From an uncultured Candidatus Saccharibacteria bacterium (GTDB taxonomy: Bacteria; Patescibacteriota; Minisyncoccia; Phycocordibacterales; CAIZLB01): 64,000 bases of DNA. Under the pieces are notes generated by a model, which worked only from the letters and a program-made list of their open reading frames with translations, did no database searches and was not told the origin of the DNA. The stretch is from assembly GCA_964467385.1 (NCBI GenBank), contig CAYXQC010000003.1:37798-101797 (forward strand), written 5' to 3'. Shown here piece by piece: positions 4,224-19,199 of the stretch (position 1 is the stretch's first letter; each line of letters begins with the position of its first letter). The position numbers and the translations under genes were made by a program.

Positions 4224-5075
4224 ATGAAAATAGCAATTACTACATTAGCAATAAGGTTTTTTACAAATACAGTACGAATTATGCTCAATGGGCTCTTTTT
4301 CCTTATAGCTGTACTTTTTCCATCAAAGAGTATTAAACATAATGAAGTTGAAATAGGCGCAGAAATTTTCACGTCGCAAAGCAACAAACAATCAAAAGTT
4401 AAAATGGACAATTTGTGCACATTCACTGAAGCAAAAGTACCAGTTCTCTATAAATTTAACTATCGCAATCTAGAAATTAAACGACTGGTGTGGCAATTTA
4501 AATATTATAAAAATAAAGCATCTAGAGAAGCACTCGAAATACTCGGTGATCATCTGTATGACGAGCTTGTCTCTATAGTATCCGACCGTATCTGCGCAAT
4601 TCCCTTTCAAAAATCAGTTGTATTAGTACACTGTCCATCTTCGACTTATTTTAAAGGTGAAAAAGATTTTGATCATATGAAAGAATTACTTTTGTACATT
4701 GATTATGTCGGAAATACTCATTCGAAGGGATTCATCGAGCGACAATCTACGAATTTTTTTACAATTTGCACGCATGCCATTTTGCCAAATCTAAAAAGTG
4801 GCACACAGAAACAAGCACAACACTTTGGAAACCGTGCCGAAAGGTTTAAATGGTCAAAAGATAGATTTATAATTTCAGAAAGATTTGAAGAGTATTTTAG
4901 GCAATCTGTGATCGAAAATCCACTCGTAGAGCAACAAATGGCGTACAAACCGCATATACCATATATATATTGTATAGATGACGTAGTTACAACTGGGGCC
5001 AGTTTTGAAGCCATATCGGCTATGCTACAGTGCAAACTTGGCGTCAATGTAAATTGTGTCGCACTTTGCCACTAA
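4224..5075 (+). CDS. ComF-family phosphoribosyltransferase-domain protein (competence). Start uncertain: 4155, 4224 and 4404 are all possible.
   Basis: C-terminal PRTase signature IDDVVTTGAS; placement next to the pilus operon; no clear N-terminal zinc finger. Confidence 0.5.
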   Translation: MKIAITTLAIRFFTNTVRIMLNGLFFLIAVLFPSKSIKHNEVEIGAEIFTSQSNKQSKVKMDNLCTFTEAKVPVLYKFNYRNLEIKRLVWQFKYYKNKASREALEILGDHLYDELVSIVSDRICAIPFQKSVVLVHCPSSTYFKGEKDFDHMKELLLYIDYVGNTHSKGFIERQSTNFFTICTHAILPNLKSGTQKQAQHFGNRAERFKWSKDRFIISERFEEYFRQSVIENPLVEQQMAYKPHIPYIYCIDDVVTTGASFEAISAMLQCKLGVNVNCVALCH

Positions 5076-5104
5076 ATATGGTATCTTGTCTCTACAAACC
5101 ACAT

Positions 5105-5193
5105 GGAGACGTGTCAGAGTGGTCGAATGTGCCTCTTTGCTAAAGAGGTGGGCCTTTAAAAGGGTCCCGAGGGTTCGAATCCCTCCGTCTCCG
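5105..5193 (+). tRNA. tRNA-Ser (anticodon GCT), class II with long variable arm
   Basis: Acceptor stem GGAGACG/CGTCTCC, anticodon stem CCTCT/AGAGG with loop TTGCTAA, long variable arm, T-arm GAGGG-TTCGAAT-CCCTC, discriminator G. Confidence 0.8.
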
Positions 5194-5221
5194 CCTTGAC
5201 AATTTAGTATCGGCGTGACCC
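5174..5221 (+). repeat. attL-like direct repeat (tRNA-Ser 3' end plus downstream block)
   Basis: Identical 21 bp, then a diverged 9-nt patch and a second 18-bp block (TTAGTATCGGCGTGACCC) matching 18415-18432 at 16/18. Confidence 0.6.
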
Positions 5222-5270
5222 TATTACTCGCGGGAGTAGGGCGACCCACGTACCTACTAGATTGCACAAA

Positions 5271-5301
5271 ACACCAAGAGAATTCTCTTGGTGTTTTGTT
5301 G
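5271..5301 (+). terminator. Rho-independent terminator-like hairpin downstream of tRNA-Ser
   Basis: ACACCAAGAGA-ATT-CTCTTGGTGT followed by TTTGTTG. Confidence 0.5.
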
Positions 5302-5317
5302 TTTATATAATTATGAA

Positions 5318-6004
5318 ATGAATTTTGGGAAAGCTATTAAAACCATCACTAAACTTCTCAAGAAAGAAAAGCCTAAAACATTTAGCAGTTCTTGGATTTC
5401 TACCCGTTCTCCTCTCGTATATCACTTCATCAGAGTTAACTTTAGAACCGAAAATAACCACATAGACTGGGACAAGGTCACAGCGGCCCTCGATCCTAAG
5501 TATGCAAAGTGCTGGATGCGTTACAAACGCAAGGTTGCCAAGCCTTACGAGAATCAGATAGAGGTGGATATCATACTTACGAAGTACAAAGACAAGCTCT
5601 ACACCTTTGTCGCTCTTGTTGATGATGGTGATAAGGAAACAAGGAATCAGCTGATCATCGCTCTTGTCCGAATCGCCCAGAAAGGAAATATTCTCGCTCA
5701 ATTAGAACTTACGAAGTGGCTGAAGTATGTCGTCGATGATTGGGTCGATAAATATTACCCGCTATTTAAATGGAAGGGTTACACCGATGACATTGAAGAC
5801 AAGATCCATGGCTGTATTCGCTGTTACAAATACACCGGATCATTTCTTGGCTACTTGTTTAAAACGCTCGAATATTCTGGTCGTGGCATACGACCCCTTC
5901 AAGCATGGTCGCTTGATAAGAATGTCGGTGATGACGGTGCAACGATGATTGATTTCGTTGCTCAGGATAGTGAAACGGGAGAGGTGAAGTTGTTCGGGAG
6001 GTAA
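5318..6004 (+). CDS. Hypothetical protein (island cargo). Start probably at the internal ATG at 5318 rather than 5288, which overlaps the terminator.
   Basis: ORF track; no recognised motifs. Confidence 0.35.
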   Translation: MNFGKAIKTITKLLKKEKPKTFSSSWISTRSPLVYHFIRVNFRTENNHIDWDKVTAALDPKYAKCWMRYKRKVAKPYENQIEVDIILTKYKDKLYTFVALVDDGDKETRNQLIIALVRIAQKGNILAQLELTKWLKYVVDDWVDKYYPLFKWKGYTDDIEDKIHGCIRCYKYTGSFLGYLFKTLEYSGRGIRPLQAWSLDKNVGDDGATMIDFVAQDSETGEVKLFGR

Positions 6005-6023
6005 TTATTGATACTCGCTCTGT

Positions 6024-6866
6024 CTAAATTATTCTCCCGTCAATTTCGTGGAATAGATTACTGACCATGATAAGGCGACCGAGCGCATCGTGGTGCGGAA
6101 GTTGATCTTCGTCGCCGTGGCTAAGATTGTTTCTCCACCAGTGCATAATACCCATGGTGGTGAGCTTGAAGCCGAGTTGCTTATTGATCTCCTGCGGTGT
6201 TGATAGAGCGTTGAACTTTATTTTCGGGTTCTGTTCACTGAAAACAGCCGCCATCAAATCAGGTCCTTGCTTGTCATGAGTGCTTGTAAGGTCTTGGACC
6301 GTCTTCTCGAACCTTTCAAGAGCTTTCCTCACTGACTCGTTGATATGACCTTCGATGAACATCTTTTTGCAGTCAGGAAGAAGTGAGGGATGAAGAACGT
6401 ATGCATCCAAGATTTTCTGAATCGCTATCGGAGGCGGAACTGTCTTCGGTCTTTCCTTTGGAAGATTCATTGCCACAATTTCTGATTCAAGATCAATGTT
6501 GAGAGCCTTAAGTCGCGCTGAGAGTCCAAGAGCTTCAGCTTCCAATACGGGATCGCCTTTCTCGTGTCGCTTTTCTATCGCCTTCGGTAGCATCTCTCGC
6601 ACGAGGATTTTTATAGTTCTCGGCTTCTGGCAGTAAAGATTTCGCAGGAACTCGTAGAAAGATTCCTTTTTGTTGGCCGCCTTGGCGGGAAGATATTTCG
6701 ACAGACCCCTTTCTTTAGCAATGGTCGTCAAAGAAAAGGAGCTTCGGAATCCCGAAAGAGCAATGAGCTTCCCGAGCTGTTCCGCGAGTGCGCGGATTGC
6801 CTGAGTCTGCGGTGCTGTGACAGTTACTCTTTTCTTCGCAATCTTTTTCTTGGTTTTCTTTTTCAT
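6024..6866 (-). CDS. Hypothetical protein with a basic N-terminus and a C-terminal HEPN-like Rx4H motif. Possible Abi/toxin-like RNase domain.
   Basis: N-terminal MKKKTKKKIAKKR; C-terminal WRNNLSHGD fits the Rx4-6H HEPN signature; 4-nt gap to the upstream Zn-ribbon gene. Confidence 0.35.
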   Translation of the reverse strand: MKKKTKKKIAKKRVTVTAPQTQAIRALAEQLGKLIALSGFRSSFSLTTIAKERGLSKYLPAKAANKKESFYEFLRNLYCQKPRTIKILVREMLPKAIEKRHEKGDPVLEAEALGLSARLKALNIDLESEIVAMNLPKERPKTVPPPIAIQKILDAYVLHPSLLPDCKKMFIEGHINESVRKALERFEKTVQDLTSTHDKQGPDLMAAVFSEQNPKIKFNALSTPQEINKQLGFKLTTMGIMHWWRNNLSHGDEDQLPHHDALGRLIMVSNLFHEIDGRII

Positions 6867-6869
6867 AAA

Positions 6870-7400
6870 TTATTTGGTCGTGTGGACATGGAATCCGCAG
6901 GCTCGGCAGATTCCGTTTATGTTGGCATCTCCGTTTACGTGGAATTCAAAGTTTTCCTTACCGCAAACAGAGCAAACAACTCGACCGCCACTGCGTTTCG
7001 TGGCATCAATCGTATCCAGTATGTCTCTCACGTTCAGAACGTATTTGTTTACCTGTTCACGGTCGTTCAGGTATCCCTGCACCCAGAGATTCGTTGTGAT
7101 TCTTCCTGCAGATGTTTCCTTGTAGTGAATCTTTCCCTCGTTCAGAAGTTTCTCCCAGTACTGCCGTGTCTTGCCATATTCTCTAGCCACATCGCCAGAA
7201 GACATGAGTGAGGCGTTATGGGGAATATATCCCTGATTTTCCATATTTTCTACGCAGGCTCGGATGCCTTCAGCGAGCGCACTCTCTTTTTCCTCCTTGG
7301 AAAATTCGCCAGTCAAATCAACACCGAGGCTCAAAGTGCCACCACTGCTTGTGTTGGCGTGCCAATAGAATTTTCGTTTGTCGTCTTTGGTTGCAGACAT
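6870..7400 (-). CDS. Hypothetical protein with C-terminal CxxC...CxxC zinc-ribbon
   Basis: CSVCGKENFEFHVNGDANINGICRACGFHVHTTK at the C-terminus; co-transcribed orientation with 6024-6866. Confidence 0.4.
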   Translation of the reverse strand: MSATKDDKRKFYWHANTSSGGTLSLGVDLTGEFSKEEKESALAEGIRACVENMENQGYIPHNASLMSSGDVAREYGKTRQYWEKLLNEGKIHYKETSAGRITTNLWVQGYLNDREQVNKYVLNVRDILDTIDATKRSGGRVVCSVCGKENFEFHVNGDANINGICRACGFHVHTTK

Positions 7401-7538
7401 GGCATAAGTATATGCTTGTTGGTTTCTAAATGCAACCAGTTATCTAATACACACGATGTATCAGATAGTATTAGTTTGTATCAGATTAATACGGCTATAA
7501 GGTATGTAGCCGATTACGGCGGATTACAGCCGAAAGGC

Positions 7539-8888
7539 TTATTCCTTCACCAATGTCAGCGTTTTATCCTTGTATATAATTCTCGATCGCAGATTGGCCA
7601 ACAGCTCCCGCTTCTCACTCGTCATGCCTTCCTTGAGGATGTACTTGGCGTAGTTTCGGATATCGGTATCCTTGTCGGTCTTTATCTTCTCCGTTGCTCC
7701 AAGCACAGATCTTTGGAATATATTGTATCGATTTATCTCCTCCTCAAGCTTCTGCCTCATGCCAAGCTCGTTGATGTTCACCTTGTCGAGAATTTTCAGA
7801 AGTTCAGTAATCAGTTCTTCTTCACGAATATATTTGTTCTTGCAGTTTCGGTCCCTAGCTCGTGAGCATGAGTAGTAGATGTAGCGGTTGGCACCTCCGT
7901 CCTTTAGTTGCTTCCATTTCTCCTCAGCCGATATGCCTGATTGGCAGTATCCGCATGTGAAGAGTTTGGTGAAGGCGAACTCCTTCGTTTCTCGCACGAT
8001 CTGGTCGCGCTTCAACTGTGCTTTCGTTTTCTCGAACAGTTCTTGAGTGATCAAGGGCTGATGTTTTCCCTGATACCAGTTGCCGCTTTCCCTTGGTCTT
8101 TCAAATATTCCGTAGTAGAAGGGATTCTCTAGGATTCGATACACACCACTCAGGGTCAGAGGTCTGTTTCCACGTGTATGGAAATTCAGCTCGAACCTCA
8201 TCCAGTTGTATACCTTTCTTCCAGACCATTGCTCATATGCAACTTTCTCGAACATCTTCTTGATGATTGGCGCTCTCTGCGGATCCACAAGCACCTGACC
8301 TTTCTTGTCCATATGCTTTTGATTGAGATATCCAAGCGGTGCCGTTCCGACCCATAGTCCCATCTCGCATCGGGTTCTTAGTCCTCGCTTCACGTTGATG
8401 CCTCGATTGTCATTCTCCAATTTTGCTTGGCTACACAGAATCATCAGCATGAACTTGTCGTTCGGGCTGTTGGTGAATCTTTGGCCGTAGGTGCGGATGT
8501 CCTGCAGATAATTTCCGTCCATAAGATCGATCACTTTTCCGAGATCGCCTGCGTTTCTTGAAATACGGTCTGGTGCCCACGTCAGGATGCCGTTAAACTT
8601 TCCTTGCTTGATCTCATCCACGATCTCATTGAAGACGGGGCGCTGCCCAGTCTCCTTAGCCGAGTGCGATTCTCGCTTCATGGTCACGATCTCCAATCCT
8701 TCTCTTTCTGCCAGTTGGAGCATCTCATTGATCTGGCTATCAATGCTCAAAACCTGCCGTTCCTCCGATTCCGTCGACTTTCTTGCGTAAAGGCAGTATT
8801 TCACCTTTACGGGGCTTGCTACTTTGGCCGCAGTCCCTAATGGCTCTGGTCCTTGTATTTTTGTCATACAACACAAGGAATGACGCAA
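7539..8888 (-). CDS. Large serine recombinase (resolvase/invertase catalytic domain + recombinase domain + zinc-ribbon). True start may be an internal Met.
   Basis: N-terminal YARKSTESEE (the catalytic Ser within the Y-x-R-x-S-T motif), an approximately 450-aa multi-domain length, and C-terminal cysteine pairs CGYC...SCSRARDRNC. Confidence 0.8.
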   Translation of the reverse strand: MRHSLCCMTKIQGPEPLGTAAKVASPVKVKYCLYARKSTESEERQVLSIDSQINEMLQLAEREGLEIVTMKRESHSAKETGQRPVFNEIVDEIKQGKFNGILTWAPDRISRNAGDLGKVIDLMDGNYLQDIRTYGQRFTNSPNDKFMLMILCSQAKLENDNRGINVKRGLRTRCEMGLWVGTAPLGYLNQKHMDKKGQVLVDPQRAPIIKKMFEKVAYEQWSGRKVYNWMRFELNFHTRGNRPLTLSGVYRILENPFYYGIFERPRESGNWYQGKHQPLITQELFEKTKAQLKRDQIVRETKEFAFTKLFTCGYCQSGISAEEKWKQLKDGGANRYIYYSCSRARDRNCKNKYIREEELITELLKILDKVNINELGMRQKLEEEINRYNIFQRSVLGATEKIKTDKDTDIRNYAKYILKEGMTSEKRELLANLRSRIIYKDKTLTLVKE

Positions 8889-8959
8889 CTCGCCCCAAGA
8901 GTCCAGAGCGTCCCGAGTACCTCGAAGTTGGTAACTTTTGCCTGTGGAAAACCCAATAG

Positions 8960-9225
8960 GTGGTTAAGGAAGTTAACCAAAATCGGTAAATTTCGTTAAC
9001 CAGAACTGGTTAACTTTGTTAACACACAAAAGAAAGAGAAATATAGAGAAACTTAGTATTAGGTACAACCTGTGGAAAAACTAGTCTAGTAGGTAGACTA
9101 GTCTAAAATTCAGACTACTTTTGGTCTATTTAGTAGACCGCAAGTAGTCTACGAAGTAGACACACAAAATCTAGGAAACAAAGGGAAACCTAGTATTAGG
9201 GATCGGGTGTGGACAAAGGGTCAAA
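8960..9225. promoter_or_regulatory. Palindrome/repeat cluster upstream of the recombinase gene. Candidate operator or recombination site.
   Basis: - Four GTTAAC-containing palindromes, including the 20-bp GTTAACCAGAACTGGTTAAC at 8995-9014.
- A 23-bp palindrome CTAGTCTAGTAGGTAGACTAGTC around 9081-9105.
- Further GTAGAC/GTCTAC half-sites to 9172.
- About 37-bp imperfect direct repeats (ACYTAGTATTAGG...TGTGGA.AAA) at 9049-9087 and 9187-9223 bracketing them. Confidence 0.4.
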
Positions 9226-9531
9226 AGCCACGACCTCTTTCCTTAATTTCTCAAAATCTCTGAAAACCCTGTTGTATATCCTTATGACTTTTCCTTTGCG
9301 CTTCTTGGTATCGCCATTCTCAAGAAAATCGACGAGGTCATCGTCGATGAAGGAAGCGAGAGAAATGTATGAGGCGACCAATAGCCTAATCCGCTCCCTG
9401 ATCGCCATCTTCAGATGCCTCTTTGACTCAGGCAACTTTGAGATACGGTTAAAAGGAGTAGAGCCTGTTGGCTCATGGTATTTGAAATGCTTTGAGGCTT
9501 CTATGATTGCTTCGATATCATCGTCTTTCAC
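9196..9531 (-). CDS. Hypothetical small protein (island)
   Basis: ORF track only; acidic/basic mixed, no motif recognised. Confidence 0.3.
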   Translation of the reverse strand: MKDDDIEAIIEASKHFKYHEPTGSTPFNRISKLPESKRHLKMAIRERIRLLVASYISLASFIDDDLVDFLENGDTKKRKGKVIRIYNRVFRDFEKLRKEVVAFDPLSTPDP

Positions 9532-9634
9532 CCCCTAACTGATGACGCTGTTCGCAAAGCCTGTCTAGACCCCTCAAAAGTCTCGAGGTTGGTAACCGAC
9601 TACACAAATTCCGATATGTAAGTTATGGTACTAA

Positions 9635-10633
9635 ATGCCTCTAAAAATGCTTCACTTAAGGTCGTTTTTATGCTTTAATATAGCCATTATGGAATTAGTT
9701 CGACTATTCAAAAATCTTACTAAAAACGATGCTGCCATTGCAGGTGGCAAAGGAGCCTCTTTAGGTGAGATGTCCCAAGCAGGAATCCCGGTCCCTCCGG
9801 GATTTGTTGTATTGTCGGAATCCTTCGAGCAATTTCTTCGAGAAACTGATCTTATTCAGGAAATTGATGCAATTCTCGATAACTTAAGTCACAAGGAGAT
9901 TCATCTAGTGGAAGCAGCATCAGAAAAAATCCGCGCACTTATTCTTTCCAAAGAGATGCCGAAAGATATTGCAACTGAAATAAGTAAATCTTCCAAAGAA
10001 CTTGGTTCAGAATTTGTAGCCGTACGATCGTCGGCCACTGCAGAGGATGGCCAAGATCACTCATGGGCAGGTCAACTCGAGTCTTATTTGAACGTAAAAG
10101 AAAATGATGTACTTAATAAAGTTAAGCACTGTTGGGCTTCGCTCTTTACCCCACGTGCAATCTTTTATCGTTTTGAAAAAGAACTTCACACAACAAAGAT
10201 TTCTGTGGCGGTTGTGGTGCAAAAAATGGTTGATTCAGAAATTTCTGGAATTGCATTCTCGGTTCATCCTGTAACTGAAGACAAGAACCAACTTATTATT
10301 GAAGCAGGATATGGATTGGGAGAAGCAATAGTGTCGGGATCGATTACCCCCGATAGTTATGTGGTTGAAAAAGAACCTCGGAAAATTCTCGATATCAATA
10401 TAGCAACACAAACCGAGGCACTCTATAAAAATACGGCGGGAGGAAATACATGGAAAAACATCCATGAACCAAAGGCAAGCTCTCAGGTATTAAAGGAGGT
10501 TCAAATTCTTGAGCTTGCTGATATAATTTTAAATATCGAGAAACATTACGGATTCCCCTGTGACATCGAGTGGGCGTTTGAAAGCGGAAAGTTTTATATT
10601 GTGCAAAGCAGACCCATTACTACATTAACTTAA
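9635..10633 (+). CDS. PEP-synthase / pyruvate-phosphate-dikinase N-terminal ATP-binding (PPDK_N) domain protein. Forms the N-terminal part of a rifampin-phosphotransferase-like enzyme.
   Basis: AIAGGKGASLGEMSQAGIPVPPGFVV and VAVRSSATAEDG motifs are typical of the PPDK_N nucleotide-binding domain. The ORF ends at an in-frame TAA three codons before the next ORF. Confidence 0.7.
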   Translation: MPLKMLHLRSFLCFNIAIMELVRLFKNLTKNDAAIAGGKGASLGEMSQAGIPVPPGFVVLSESFEQFLRETDLIQEIDAILDNLSHKEIHLVEAASEKIRALILSKEMPKDIATEISKSSKELGSEFVAVRSSATAEDGQDHSWAGQLESYLNVKENDVLNKVKHCWASLFTPRAIFYRFEKELHTTKISVAVVVQKMVDSEISGIAFSVHPVTEDKNQLIIEAGYGLGEAIVSGSITPDSYVVEKEPRKILDINIATQTEALYKNTAGGNTWKNIHEPKASSQVLKEVQILELADIILNIEKHYGFPCDIEWAFESGKFYIVQSRPITTLT

Positions 10634-10642
10634 ATCAAATTT

Positions 10643-12181
10643 ATGAATACAAACATCGAACAATTATTACAAAAATATACATTAACTCCCGATTTACTCA
10701 CTGATCCATTGATGAGTCTTGATATGGCTAAACTTGGGGACGACATCACTTCTTTTAAAGAAGAAGGTCTTTCCCAAGGATTTATTCGTCGTCGCATCGT
10801 GCTTTTTATGGATGGCTATCGATATTCGCTTCGTGCAGCAGAAAAGAGATGGGGTATTGATTTTGGATTTTATGAAACTGGAAAAGAACCAGTGAAGAAA
10901 GTATATTTTTCAGGAAAATTTAACGATAATGCAGCCGTGGTTTGGTTACAGAAGATGAACGAAGATAAAGACTTTGGAAATAATCTCGTTGAAGAACTCA
11001 AGACAATAATTGAAATGGAGAAATACTTGGCCGCTTCTGTCTCACAAACAGAACTGTCTAAGGAACAAATTAAAAAACACTTGGAGAATCATCTTTCGTG
11101 GTGGATTCAATTTTTTGAATTTGGATTTCTGTGGTTTTGTGCAGAAAATATTCAACAAGACACAAACGCAAAAATAGAAAAGATCTGGAAAGATACACCA
11201 GAATCGCTTAAGGAATTTCTTGAGGGTGTTTACAGACCAATGGACTTACCTGTATCAAGTGTAGAACAGCGAGATATTCTTGATATCAGCCAATTACAAG
11301 GAGAGGAACTTGAAAAAGCGCTCGACGCCCATTGGAAGAAGTACAAGCACCTATCTCTCCATAATATTGATGATGAGCCTTTTGATAAGGACTACTATGT
11401 AAGTCGAATTAAATCTCTACAAAAAGAAGGAGAATATGCAAAACAAAAAGACTTATTAACCCATGCTGATGCAGAAATTGGTGAAGCGACAAGCCTTCTC
11501 AAGGGTGCGGATATTCCAGAGGAACTAAAAAATAGAATCGAGTTTGTTCGCTGGTTCATGTTTCTTCGAACTGAATCGGTCGACAATATGATGCTAGTGA
11601 ATTCCTCATACAGACATGTATTCGATTCTCTATCAAAGTTATTTGATTTACCGATAGAGGCAGTACTCAATATGACATACAAGGAAATATTTGAGAGTCT
11701 TGAGGCTGGTAAACTTACTCTTTCTAAAGAAGTTATACTGGATAGATTAGAAAATGGTTATGCTTACTTTATTGGATATCGAACTGAAGCATTGCTTACT
11801 GGAGATGATAGACAAAAACTTATTGATATCCTACATCCTGCAACAAACGAAGAAATTATTAAGGAAATAAAAGGACAGATTGCATACAAAGGTAAGATTC
11901 AAGCGATAGCACGAGTCATTCTTGACCGAAAAAATGCTTCCGAGCTACAAGAAGGTGAAATTCTTGTGACCGCCATGACATCTCCAGACTTCGTGCCAGC
12001 CATGAAGATTTCAGCGGGAATCATTACCAATGAAGGAGGAGTACTGTGTCATGCCGCTATCATGTCTCGCGAACTACGAAAGCCTTGTGTTATAGGTACT
12101 AAGACGGCTACCGATATAATAAAGACTGGGGATTTGGTTGAATTAGATGGTGATACTGGAATAATTAAAATTCTAAGCTAG
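10643..12181 (+). CDS. PEP-utilising-enzyme mobile (swivel His) domain protein. C-terminal part of the same RPH-like phosphotransferase.
   Basis: C-terminal GGVLCHAAIMSRELRKPCVIGT is the PEP-utilizers phosphohistidine domain signature, at the extreme C-terminus as in rifampin phosphotransferases. Same reading frame as 9635-10633. Confidence 0.7.
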   Translation: MNTNIEQLLQKYTLTPDLLTDPLMSLDMAKLGDDITSFKEEGLSQGFIRRRIVLFMDGYRYSLRAAEKRWGIDFGFYETGKEPVKKVYFSGKFNDNAAVVWLQKMNEDKDFGNNLVEELKTIIEMEKYLAASVSQTELSKEQIKKHLENHLSWWIQFFEFGFLWFCAENIQQDTNAKIEKIWKDTPESLKEFLEGVYRPMDLPVSSVEQRDILDISQLQGEELEKALDAHWKKYKHLSLHNIDDEPFDKDYYVSRIKSLQKEGEYAKQKDLLTHADAEIGEATSLLKGADIPEELKNRIEFVRWFMFLRTESVDNMMLVNSSYRHVFDSLSKLFDLPIEAVLNMTYKEIFESLEAGKLTLSKEVILDRLENGYAYFIGYRTEALLTGDDRQKLIDILHPATNEEIIKEIKGQIAYKGKIQAIARVILDRKNASELQEGEILVTAMTSPDFVPAMKISAGIITNEGGVLCHAAIMSRELRKPCVIGTKTATDIIKTGDLVELDGDTGIIKILS

Positions 12182-12183
12182 AT

Positions 12184-13026
12184 ATGAAAGAGTCTTTTCC
12201 AAACAATTCCGACGCTATAATCACCAGACATTCTATTCGAGGGGAAAACTCTGAATATGAAGGGCTGTCACCAGAAGGTATTGAGAAAGCAAAAGAAAGG
12301 GCAAAGGATTTCGTGGAAATTATTGAAAAATCTGAACCAGGTACGGTTATATTTTTTGGCGGTGGTTCAACAGAAGCTCGAACAACCTCCACTTTGGAAG
12401 TTTATGTGGATGAAACAAAAAGCTTGTTAAAAGAGAAAGAGGGTGTCTTGTTTTTCGATCAGGAATCAATATCAGAAAAAGCACAGCGTGGTCACCTGTC
12501 CGCAGCAGAAGAGCTTAAAAAAGAAGCAGATGATAATCCTGAGGCAAAAGTAGTTGTAGATCTACCGCTTGTTATTAAGGATTTTCTTAAAGACGAATGG
12601 TGGTATGAGGAAGATGGAACGGTTAAAGAGCCGTGGCAATCTTTATTAGATAAACATGGGAAAGATTACTCATCCATAGTTCGAGACTGGTTTGAGACTC
12701 AGGGAATGTATGATGGTGAGCAAAAGGTTCCTAAACCTATTGAAGTTGCTGAAAGCTATCTAAATGGAATTAAACGATTACAAGGTTTTGTTAGAAAGTT
12801 TTCAGGAGATAGGAACGTTAAAGTTGTAGTTGTCGGGCATAGCATTCAGATGGATGCTTTACTTACTTATTTGGCAAATGATGGGGTTGTAGATTTAGAA
12901 GGATTTGAAAATATCGGAGACAAAGTTGTAGATACAACTGAAATGTCTGTTATTGAACCTGATGAAGATGGAGGCATTCATCTTTCTTATAGGGGTAAAG
13001 AGTTTATTTTTGGAGAAAATCAATAA
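12184..13026 (+). CDS. Histidine phosphatase superfamily (phosphoglycerate-mutase-like) protein
   Basis: N-terminal ITRHSIRGEN (RHG-type catalytic motif) and VVVGHS later; start 2 nt after the preceding stop. Confidence 0.55.
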   Translation: MKESFPNNSDAIITRHSIRGENSEYEGLSPEGIEKAKERAKDFVEIIEKSEPGTVIFFGGGSTEARTTSTLEVYVDETKSLLKEKEGVLFFDQESISEKAQRGHLSAAEELKKEADDNPEAKVVVDLPLVIKDFLKDEWWYEEDGTVKEPWQSLLDKHGKDYSSIVRDWFETQGMYDGEQKVPKPIEVAESYLNGIKRLQGFVRKFSGDRNVKVVVVGHSIQMDALLTYLANDGVVDLEGFENIGDKVVDTTEMSVIEPDEDGGIHLSYRGKEFIFGENQ

Positions 13027-17599: not shown

Positions 17600-17775
17600 G
17601 AATTACTCTTGCTCCTCACTTAATCATGCGTGTGAAAAAGTGATTTTTGTGTTGCATTACTCTTCTGTCCTGAGACAATGGTAAATCCCAAAAAGTGACA
17701 AATCGTGGTGCATTACTTTTGCCATCCATAATGCTACTCGTGAAAAAATGCAAAAAGGTGTGCATTACTTTCTCT
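17600..17775. repeat. Periodic iteron-like repeats upstream of the ParB-MTase/terminase operon
   Basis: Four copies of ..TGCATTACTYTT / ATTACTCTT at 17603, 17656, 17712 and 17764 (spacing 52-56 bp). The three downstream copies at 17630-17664, 17690-17720 and 17739-17772 are preceded by AAAAAGTGA-type blocks. Confidence 0.45.
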
Positions 17776-18172
17776 ACCCAGAATCGTATGCTGGCCAACG
17801 TATCCGATTAGTGGGTATTGAAAATGCTACTGGATAAAAAACGTGTAAAATCGTGCGGAATCAATTTCACTTTCTTATCCTCTAAAAGCGTAGCGGACCC
17901 GAACCCTTCTGTCTGGGGGAATTACCTGGCAGAGAATGAATATGAAAATCAGTCCAGCAATCCTCTGAAAATATGCAAAATCAAAATGGCACACTGCTTT
18001 GGCACAGTGTGCTGTTCCAATACCTCTGAAATACCCTTATGTTGCTTGGCGAAAGATGTCGAAACCATCCTTACGGGGCTTGTTTGAAACACTGCCCCTG
18101 CGTGTGCCAAATTGTGCCAATTTGGGAAAGGGAGACCCCGACCCACGAACCCCAAATTGATCAGTCCAAATA

Positions 18173-18229
18173 TGCTAAAATACCCTTACAAGGTCTCACC
18201 CATGGGGTACTTAACCCACGATGCCCGCA
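18173..18229 (+). repeat. Copy A of a 57-nt duplicated block with an extended -10 promoter-like start
   Basis: TGCTAAAATACCCTTA ... GGTACTTAACCCACGATGCCCGCA; followed by hairpin ACCAGTTTTAACTGGT. Confidence 0.4.
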
Positions 18230-18384: not shown

Positions 18385-18432
18385 TTCGAATCCCTCCGTC
18401 TCCGCATTAAGAACTTGGTATCGGCATGACCC
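18385..18432 (+). repeat. attR-like direct repeat (displaced copy of the tRNA-Ser 3' end, no 5' half)
   Basis: TTCGAATCCCTCCGTCTCCGC identical to 5174-5194; no complementary T-stem or acceptor 5' strand upstream. Confidence 0.6.
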
Positions 18433-19080: not shown

Positions 19081-19142
19081 ATTATCGCTAATGGCAAGAT
19101 TAGACTAGTGACCCACATACCTAATTTCAGTCTCAAAAAACT

Positions 19143-19199
19143 TGCTAAAATATCCTTAGGGGGTTTCGCCACTCTGGTACCTAACCCACGATGCCCGCA
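19143..19199 (+). repeat. Copy B of the same 57-nt block
   Basis: TGCTAAAATATCCTTA ... GGTACCTAACCCACGATGCCCGCA; same spacing as A with a 17-nt variable middle; followed by perfect hairpin GGACAGAATTTATTCTGTCC (19212-19231). Confidence 0.4.

Follow-up and report, generated by a model that had tools for sequence, protein, structure and literature searches.

Which protein reads the dense cluster of palindromes that lies just upstream of a serine recombinase gene in an uncultured Candidatus Saccharibacteria bacterium, and what is such a cluster for? The locus is part of a 64,000-nt stretch of contig CAYXQC010000003.1, referred to here as the window. An initial annotation proposed a multi-site operator or an att/res-like recombination site, with the recombinase itself or the product of a neighbouring open reading frame (ORF), ORF111, as its binding protein. 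In this paper we looked at the cluster together with its relatives in genomes, viral contigs and metagenomes. The cluster consists of two tandem modules, A (8943-9079) and B (9071-9216), and sequence comparison makes it very probable that they are a pair of orphan replication origin modules of the phage O type, whose dyads would be initiator-binding iterons. The result also shows that palindromes clustered beside a recombinase gene are not necessarily sites of that enzyme.

The palindrome cluster is real and well above chance level. A palindrome scan finds five perfect dyads of the form 5-N5-5 in 286 bp, compared with 0.41 ± 0.63 (maximum 4) in 5000 dinucleotide-preserving shuffles and about 0.5 expected from the rate of the whole window. 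The elements that had been listed at the outset were found again: four GTTAAC palindromes at 8972, 8995, 9009 and 9018 (all within 8972-9023, and four of the nine in the whole 64 kb), a near-perfect 20-mer, GTTAACCAGAACTGGTTAAC, at 8995-9014 with fully complementary 9+9 nt arms, a 23-bp palindrome at 9080-9102 with perfect 9-nt arms and a 5-nt centre, and at least four GTAGAC/GTCTAC half-sites, namely GTAGAC at 9093, 9133 and 9156 and GTCTAC at 9147 (within 9093-9161; 4/19 in the window). The natural unit, though, is a dyad of 15 bp (5-N5-5) that can often be lengthened to 17-21 bp and recurs every 23 bp, and the 20-mer is the junction between two adjacent dyads. The direct repeats that were said to bracket the cluster exist as well (9038-9080 and 9175-9217, 74% over 43 nt, extendable to about 58 nt at 9022-9080 and 9160-9217) but they do not bracket all of it; they are the A-rich stretch, core and 9-mer of each of the two modules. 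Since one copy follows each dyad array, the region can be described as a tandem duplication of a single module. Read along the plus strand, the direction of the ancestral O gene, a module is made up of a DnaA-box-like 9-mer, dyad iterons with the 23-bp period, a stretch rich in A/T and purines that ends in an invariant core common to both modules, CCTAGTATTAGG, and a second 9-mer. The stretches have an AT content of 0.77 and 0.71, compared with a window mean of about 0.59, and the arrays hold three and four dyads, as an array of lambda-type iterons would.

Two simpler descriptions of the repeats were set aside. The 20-mer was listed as a terminator-like hairpin by a promoter and terminator scan and was discounted because it joins two dyads, and a tandem-repeat or CRISPR-like reading was put aside because each 23-bp unit combines a dyad with an 8-bp spacer and there are no unique spacers. 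Rfam gave no match at E<=1 in 4500-10000 except for the tRNA region, and a DNA search of the cluster against 50,697 deposited phage genomes gave none.

The function of the modules is best approached through their homologs. We searched public collections (IMG/VR and metagenomes) with the core; as the degenerate core pattern gave mostly chance matches in IMG/VR, these were filtered by architecture. At least 35 distinct module copies were found (loci are given below by their L numbers), with the core, a T-rich stretch, four dyads spaced 23/23/17 and flanking 9-mers that resemble TTATCCACA, which is the consensus DnaA box. A 9-mer within one mismatch of TTATCCACA stands at a fixed distance past the core in 33 of the 35 copies (18 are perfect), whereas the chance expectation is about 0.7% per 70 nt. 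In the window the 9-mers are TTTTCCACA (two copies) and TTGTCCACA (one copy), which agree by sequence with the DnaA box (TTATCCACA, TTWTNCACA) and stand at conserved positions. Seventeen of the copies, on IMG/VR and metagenome contigs, are embedded in the last (3') third of a gene of about 180 aa. This gene matches Pfam Phage_rep_O (PF04492) with 38.9 bits (cut-off 28.7) and the PHROG family 'replication initiation O-like' at 1e-19, the annotated genes closest to it are called 'replication protein O' and come from phages of Acinetobacter, Pasteurella and E. coli, and the neighbours of the O-like gene are a Sak4-like ATPase gene before it and a RusA-like gene after it; a PDB sequence search with the protein gave no match. 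Both dyad types of the window occur in this setting, the GTTAA type inside the O-like genes of L088, L121 and others and the GTCTA type inside or beside those of L159, L165, L194, L243, L267, L132 and L148. In phage lambda the origin also lies inside the O gene, with four imperfect inverted-repeat iterons followed by an AT-rich tract (PMC7466680). By analogy, the in-gene modules are probably phage replication origins with the layout of ori-lambda. As homologous modules sit inside genes for replication protein O-like products, the partner to be expected for the dyads is an O-like initiator.

The O-like proteins themselves point to the same partner, since their helix-turn-helix tracks the dyad type. 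Helix G[LM]SRP[AS]VN goes with GTTAA dyads (10 proteins), GLARASV with GTTCA dyads (3 proteins) and GLS[RK]Q[SA] with GTCTA dyads (L159, L194, L165, L243 and L132/L148). This covariation spans lineages that are 28-77% identical. The pairing of GTCTA with GLS[RK]Q is found in three lineages, and one of these, L132/L148, is about 30% identical to the rest and has a different gene layout; the presence of S[RK]Q with GTCTA in so distant a lineage is independent support for a putative recognition code. Half-site positions 1, 2 and 5 (GT..A) are invariant across all dyad types, which suggests one protein scaffold that reads the variable inner bases, and not a mere hairpin. We infer that dimers of O-like initiators would bind the iterons.

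The distant pair has a layout of its own. In L132 (about 7700-8200) and L148 (about 270-900) GTCTA-N5-TAGAC dyads, with perfect TTATCCACA boxes among them, come directly after a short O-like winged-helix gene of about 130 aa. The O-like gene of L132 adjoins a ParA-like ATPase gene on a 154-kb viral contig, which is possibly a phage-plasmid replicon.

The comparison of recombinase loci speaks against the two proteins that had first been proposed as readers. The recombinase is very widespread in Patescibacteria, and among the 80 genomic loci that were fetched only the window and L002-L004, whose recombinases are 97-99% identical, have dyad arrays. L003 and L004 retain the proximal GTTAA module, and their four distal dyads are GTTCA-N5-TGAAC, at exactly the positions of GTCTA-N5-TAGAC in the window and with flanks that are about 95% identical. 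Eight half-sites that switch together beside an unchanged recombinase mean that the recombinase is not the reader of the dyads. ORF111 is just as blind to dyad type: it is 88.3% identical to the window copy in L002, of the GTCTA type, and 88.7% in L003, of the GTTCA type, and it stands directly before the recombinase gene with no dyads in L005, L027 and L044 (in L005 ORF111 is followed by the recombinase leader, with about 60 bp between), so it was rejected as the binder. ORF176, which has a helix-turn-helix-like part and a zinc ribbon, was rejected too, as L085 has GTCTA dyads but other cargo. Exact-protein look-ups of the recombinase and ORF111 gave no record, and a single-sequence AlphaFold model of ORF111 was poor (pLDDT, the predicted local distance difference test, 54).

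The cluster also differs from the known classes of site. The att site of a large serine recombinase is one imperfect inverted repeat of about 40-50 bp, lies at the junctions and co-evolves with its enzyme, and a res site has three subsites with a small resolvase alongside, whereas the Recombinase and Zn-ribbon domains mark the protein here as a large serine recombinase. A multi-operator of a phage repressor (OL/OR), which has 2-3 dyad operators over divergent promoters beside the repressor gene, does not fit either, as there is no adjacent repressor-like gene and no sigma-70-like promoter, and homologous arrays lie inside O-like coding sequence. What stands from the operator proposal is that the dyads form an array of sites for a dimeric, sequence-specific DNA-binding protein, because the half-sites are under purifying selection in non-coding copies and switch in concert between relatives; the recombinase as partner does not.

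The modules of the window are found without the gene in which their relatives reside. Copies linked to recombinases have 2-4 stops in every frame of the O sense, while the in-gene copies have an open frame. A hidden Markov model built from 15 O-like N-terminal domains detects nothing in the 64-kb window translated in six frames (best E 0.39) or in any recombinase locus, and the same model recovers 24/24 phage genes. An origin within or next to its cognate O gene is seen in the 17 viral and metagenomic relatives and not in the window. With no O-like ORF in 64 kb and stops in all O-sense frames, the window modules can be called 'orphan'. Module B does retain a 43-codon frame that is 51% identical to an O C-terminus, which indicates that the orphans derive from the 3' ends of such genes.

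Selection on the orphans can be seen in the comparison that had been asked of related elements, where the half-sites are conserved and the neighbouring bases vary; the array is missing in 76 of the 80 recombinase loci. Among the four GTCTA-type orphans, 1/40 half-site columns is variable, compared with 6/20 central and 3/18 inter-site columns (1/40 against 9/38, Fisher p=0.006 with four sequences). The core has a conservation of 0.92 across 19 non-coding copies, against 0.98 across 17 in-gene ones, all cis parts are kept in 18 non-coding copies, and the non-coding copies are trimmed exactly from 9-mer to 9-mer with no remnant of the N-terminal part of the gene. Half-sites and core that are conserved without a coding constraint favour a complete cis-acting origin over bare binding sites. 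The orphans are also combined in different ways. Double arrays occur in the window, L002-L004, L085 and L099, and triple arrays (GTTAA, GTTCG and GTCTA in a row) in L082 (1900-2340) and L117 (whole, 1043 bp), where they are flanked on one side by a divergent recombinase of another lineage and on the other by an operon of a 121-aa gene, a ParB-methylase and terminase. L101 and L114 have ORF111, one module of three dyads and a third recombinase lineage, so that arrays adjoin three recombinase lineages. The three-dyad form of module A is found in L002-L004, L099, L101 and L114 as well, and no O gene with GTTCG-type dyads was found.

The coordinates of the modules and their surroundings are collected in the table.

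Features of the palindrome cluster and its surroundings (window coordinates)
Feature	Position	Strand	Description
DnaA-box-like 9-mer no. 1	8943-8951	-	TTTTCCACA (plus strand TGTGGAAAA); one mismatch to TTATCCACA; outer end of module A
Module A iteron array	8963-9023	.	Three dyads, spacing 23/23; canonical fourth dyad degenerate
Module A dyads	8963-8977; 8986-9000; 9009-9023		GTTAA-N5-TTAAC; GTAAA-N5-TTAAC; GTTAA-N5-TTAAC
Module A A/T- and purine-rich stretch	9024-9045	+	ACACACAAAAGAAAGAGAAATATA; AT 0.77, purine 0.82; putative unwinding region
Module A core	9046-9063	+	GAGAAACTTAGTATTAGG
DnaA-box-like 9-mer no. 2	9071-9079	-	TTTTCCACA (plus strand TGTGGAAAA); common to both modules (closes A, opens B on plus strand)
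Module B iteron array	9084-9161	.	Four GTCTA-N5-TAGAC dyads, spacing 17/23/23
Module B dyads	9084-9098; 9101-9115; 9124-9138; 9147-9161		Second dyad GTCTA/CAGAC
Module B A-rich stretch	9162-9182	+	AT 0.71
Module B core	9183-9200	+	GGGAAACCTAGTATTAGG
DnaA-box-like 9-mer no. 3	9208-9216	-	TTGTCCACA (plus strand TGTGGACAA); outer end of module B; overlaps last ORF111 codons
Recombinase leader/promoter region	8868-8938	-	GTTACCAAC..GGGACGCTCTGGACTC..GCGTCAT..ATG; context, outside modules
Large serine recombinase gene	7539-8867	-	442 aa from ATG at 8867; Resolvase + Recombinase + Zn_ribbon_recom
ORF111	9196-9531	-	111 aa, helical, conserved, no family match; stop codon inside module B core
Left island junction repeat	5174-5221	+	Final 22 nt of the tRNA-Ser(GCT) gene (5105-5195) and the next 26 nt
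Right island junction repeat	18385-18432	+	88% identical to 5174-5221

The recombinase gene and the modules lie in a 13.2-kb island at tRNA-Ser that is bounded by a 48-nt direct repeat. G+C is raised between the junction repeats, and the host genes RecG, FtsH and SecY follow beyond about 19 kb. The island has genes for a ParB-methylase, a second methylase, TerS and TerL, a cargo of PPDK_N, PEP-utilisers and histidine-phosphatase proteins, ORF111, the recombinase, a Ymh/HEPN-like protein, and two ORFs of 176 and 238 aa. Family scans of the island recognised no gene for a capsid, portal, tail or replication initiator.

How such orphan origins would be used is the next question. We give about an even chance to the explanation that two tandem lambda-type origin modules with two specificities are fired in trans by the initiators of other phages. 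In this mechanism, dimers of O-like initiators supplied in trans would bind the iterons, host DnaA would bind the flanking DnaA-box-like 9-mers and the A-rich stretch would melt. After excision by the serine recombinase, the 13.2-kb island would be replicated by the initiators of two co-infecting or co-resident phage types ('origin piracy'), and a swap of iteron cassettes, like the one between the window and L003/L004, would retarget it to another helper. The helicase may be loaded through cooperation with host DnaA at the flanking boxes, as in P1, F, pSC101 and RK2; this route seems the likeliest since the O-like proteins are short and no helicase loader is seen nearby. Activation in trans is favoured because all origin parts are kept without coding, because the island has a recombinase and terminase but no initiator, and because specificities are combined and exchanged. 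It is further favoured by the presence of two O types (L123 and L159) in one sample and by the fact that satellites are known to lean on helpers.

Several points weigh against this explanation. The assignment of the in-gene modules as origins leans on the analogy with lambda, and the correlation of helix and dyad is partly confounded by phylogeny, as it comes from three to four clades. Modules are present in a small minority of recombinase elements (4/80 genomic loci and 0/5 IMG/VR viral contigs with recombinase relatives), which argues that the island type is independent of them. The O-like proteins, at about 180 aa, are short and have no lambda-like C-terminal domain, and no helicase loader was seen next to their genes. 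Module A has three dyads only, although by analogy three may do, given that in lambda three iterons are enough for growth and two plus the AT-rich tract are enough for unwinding (PMC7466680). Finally, the mobility and satellite nature of the island are presumed, and a helper in the same host is hypothetical.

Potential helpers and orphan arrays do co-occur, if only anecdotally. IMG/VR sample 3300025323 has a GTTAA-type O phage and a GTCTA-type O phage (L123, L159) together with a recombinase-bearing element (L273), and assembly JACCDG (L082, L095) has a triple orphan array and a GTTAA-type O phage.

One possible alternative is that the arrays serve as decoys, with two specificities, which titrate or handcuff the O-like initiators of incoming phages and so protect host and island without replicating the island. 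A precedent exists in lambda, where plasmid-borne iterons ITN3-4 with oop exclude rep-lambda phages in trans (PMC3349717); the two or three specificities per array and the rapid cassette swaps between near-identical islands resemble arms-race targeting, and the cargo includes a HEPN/Ymh protein that matches PADLOC PD-Lambda-3_B. Yet 3-4 sites present in one copy make a weak sink, and in lambda the exclusion depended on multicopy plasmids and oop transcription. A decoy, moreover, needs dyads only, while conservation in the non-coding copies extends to the A-rich stretch, the core and the DnaA-box-like 9-mers. We consider this explanation unlikely.

Another hypothesis is that the modules are functionless relics, O-like 3' ends left by phage recombination at a cargo hot spot beside the integrase gene and now decaying. 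The gene-derived frame in module B, the variable cargo site between TerL and the recombinase and the absence of modules from most related elements would all fit. A decaying sequence, however, would hardly keep palindromic half-sites near-invariant while the adjacent bases vary (the p of 0.006 above, four sequences), nor keep every cis part in 18 copies and the exact 9-mer to 9-mer ends without an N-terminal remnant, and tandem arrays of mixed specificity recur in unrelated contexts. We regard relics as quite unlikely.

The arrays could also be sensors of a helper, where the O-like initiator would switch transcription of the recombinase (with read-through of ORF111) on or off and thereby couple excision to helper infection. 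They do lie 5' of recombinase genes in three lineages, in both relative orientations, and 5-70 bp upstream of a strongly conserved leader. But a sigma-70 scan found no promoter within the cluster, the TTGTAC-N17-TATATT match in module A is weak and not kept in L002, modules are lacking in most elements that share the leader and the recombinase, and conservation of the core and A-rich stretch would not be required. We know of no precedent of O-type initiators that act as transcription factors on foreign genes, and a sensor is decidedly unlikely. As for the att/res-like site or operator bound by the recombinase or the ORF111 product, closeness to the recombinase gene and a dyad symmetry that suits a dimeric binder speak for it, but it is extremely improbable given dyads that switch beside a 97-99% identical recombinase and an ORF111 about 88% identical, 76/80 recombinase loci and the ORF111-recombinase pairs of L005, L027 and L044 without arrays, junction repeats that lie elsewhere, at the tRNA-Ser ends, an enzyme that is not a res-using resolvase, and modules inside O-like genes far from any recombinase.

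The leader of about 70 nt lies right before the recombinase ATG and has the pattern GTTACCAAC..GGGACGCTCTGGACTC..N9..TTGCGTCAT..ATG. It is conserved in 46/80 loci across diverse Patescibacteria, mostly module-free. As a structured RNA it was rejected (five predicted pairs, none with a compensatory change, no RNA covariation). It looks like a shared, putative non-sigma-70 promoter, and its GGAC-N15-CGTC resembles promoters of the extracytoplasmic function (ECF) type. A diverged copy (CT[AG]GAC..N15..GCGTCAT) at 9540-9600 on the minus strand precedes ORF111 here and in nine other loci. In the triple-array loci the 121-aa gene has a perfect TATAAT placed 6 nt ahead of its ATG, which suggests a leaderless transcript.

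Some further features of the island were noted. Its only recombinase is the large serine recombinase, which is unusual for integration at a tRNA 3' end with a long repeat. The PPDK_N protein, the PEP-utilisers mobile-domain protein and the histidine phosphatase are encoded at 9635-13026, with lower G+C and on the opposite strand; since the genes found here in L002-L004 are unrelated, the interval from terminase to ORF111 is a cargo hot spot. The Ymh cargo gene (6024-6866, minus strand; Ymh C-terminal domain, PF09509/TIGR02391) also matches PADLOC Aga_HEPN and may be a defence gene, and a similar gene is found in the O-type viral contigs L118 and L121. Just inside the left junction a perfect 34-bp palindrome, ACAAAACACCAAGAGAA and TTCTCTTGGTGTTTTGT, at 5266-5299 overlaps the ORF238 start and is 100% conserved in L002 and L003. 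Near the right end, 3-4 repeats containing AGTAATGCA, about 50 bp apart, lie in an ORF-free stretch (17620-17790, minus strand) upstream of the ParB-methylase/terminase operon. A direct repeat of 62 nt occurs once in the island (18168-18229) and once outside the right junction (19138-19199), with 79% identity between the copies. It may stem from an earlier or a tandem integration, and a portion of it is similar to L082:1660-1720, beside the L082 recombinase.

Taken one step further, the island could be a phage satellite of the candidate phyla radiation (CPR) without an initiator, in which exchangeable origin cassettes mimic the origins of several helpers, any O-type phage that infects the cell could replicate the island, and iteron cassettes of about 85 bp swap through the conserved module flanks. 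We put this forward as a tentative and rather doubtful proposal. If true, it would be the first satellite described in CPR bacteria and multi-specific origin piracy would be a new parasitic strategy. In the library that was searched we found no paper that links Patescibacteria, serine recombinases and prophages. More generally, orphan arrays that act in trans would allow the island to use or jam the initiators of several phages at once, with specificity traded as small cassettes. There is almost no experimental knowledge so far of how phages and mobile elements replicate in uncultivated Patescibacteria, and the analysis defines a concrete putative origin architecture and a simple candidate protein-DNA recognition code that links helix signature and half-site; both are open to in vitro tests with synthetic parts.

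Compared with known systems, the modules come closest in their parts to ori-lambda and the origins of lambdoid and Stx phages. The initiator family is the same (PF04492, above the cut-off), the phage relatives have the origin inside the initiator gene, there are four iterons (here 3-4) that are imperfect inverted repeats suited to a dimer, whose binding is here presumed, and about two helical turns apart, an AT-rich, strand-asymmetric stretch lies beside them, and initiator and iteron specificities are matched among phages. The window copies differ in that they are outside any gene, have no initiator in cis and stand in tandem with two specificities. The dyads are of 15-19 bp (5-N5-5) with DnaA-box-like 9-mers flanking each array, the O-like protein has about 180 aa with the origin at the 3' end of its gene and not in the middle, and the hosts are Patescibacteria (CPR).

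Iteron plasmid origins such as P1 oriR, F ori2, pSC101 and RK2 oriV have initiator sites that recur about every 22-23 bp, with DnaA boxes on the flanks and an AT-rich element for unwinding, and extra iterons in trans lead to incompatibility. The site period, the DnaA-type boxes and the AT-rich element are shared with our modules. The plasmid sites, in contrast, are direct repeats for Rep monomers of other families with the Rep gene in cis, whereas the window has dyads that would suit a winged-helix O-type protein and no initiator present. The lambda inhibition phenotype is alike in that orphan lambda-type iterons act in trans to the phage; it differs in that it was obtained with engineered multicopy plasmids, needs oop RNA and has a single specificity, and is not a natural chromosomal array (PMC3349717).

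Satellites offer the last comparison. Like SaPI (rep-ori), PLE (ori/RepA) and P4 (ori/crr), the island is small, integrated and phage-related, with an iteron-type origin that, as is proposed here, would be used once a helper has infected and the island is excised. Satellites can depend on their helpers even for replication (PMC11389934), but those that are characterised encode their own origin-matched initiator, for example PLE (PMC7145576). The island of the window, if it is indeed a satellite, differs from these by having origins only, and origins of several specificities.

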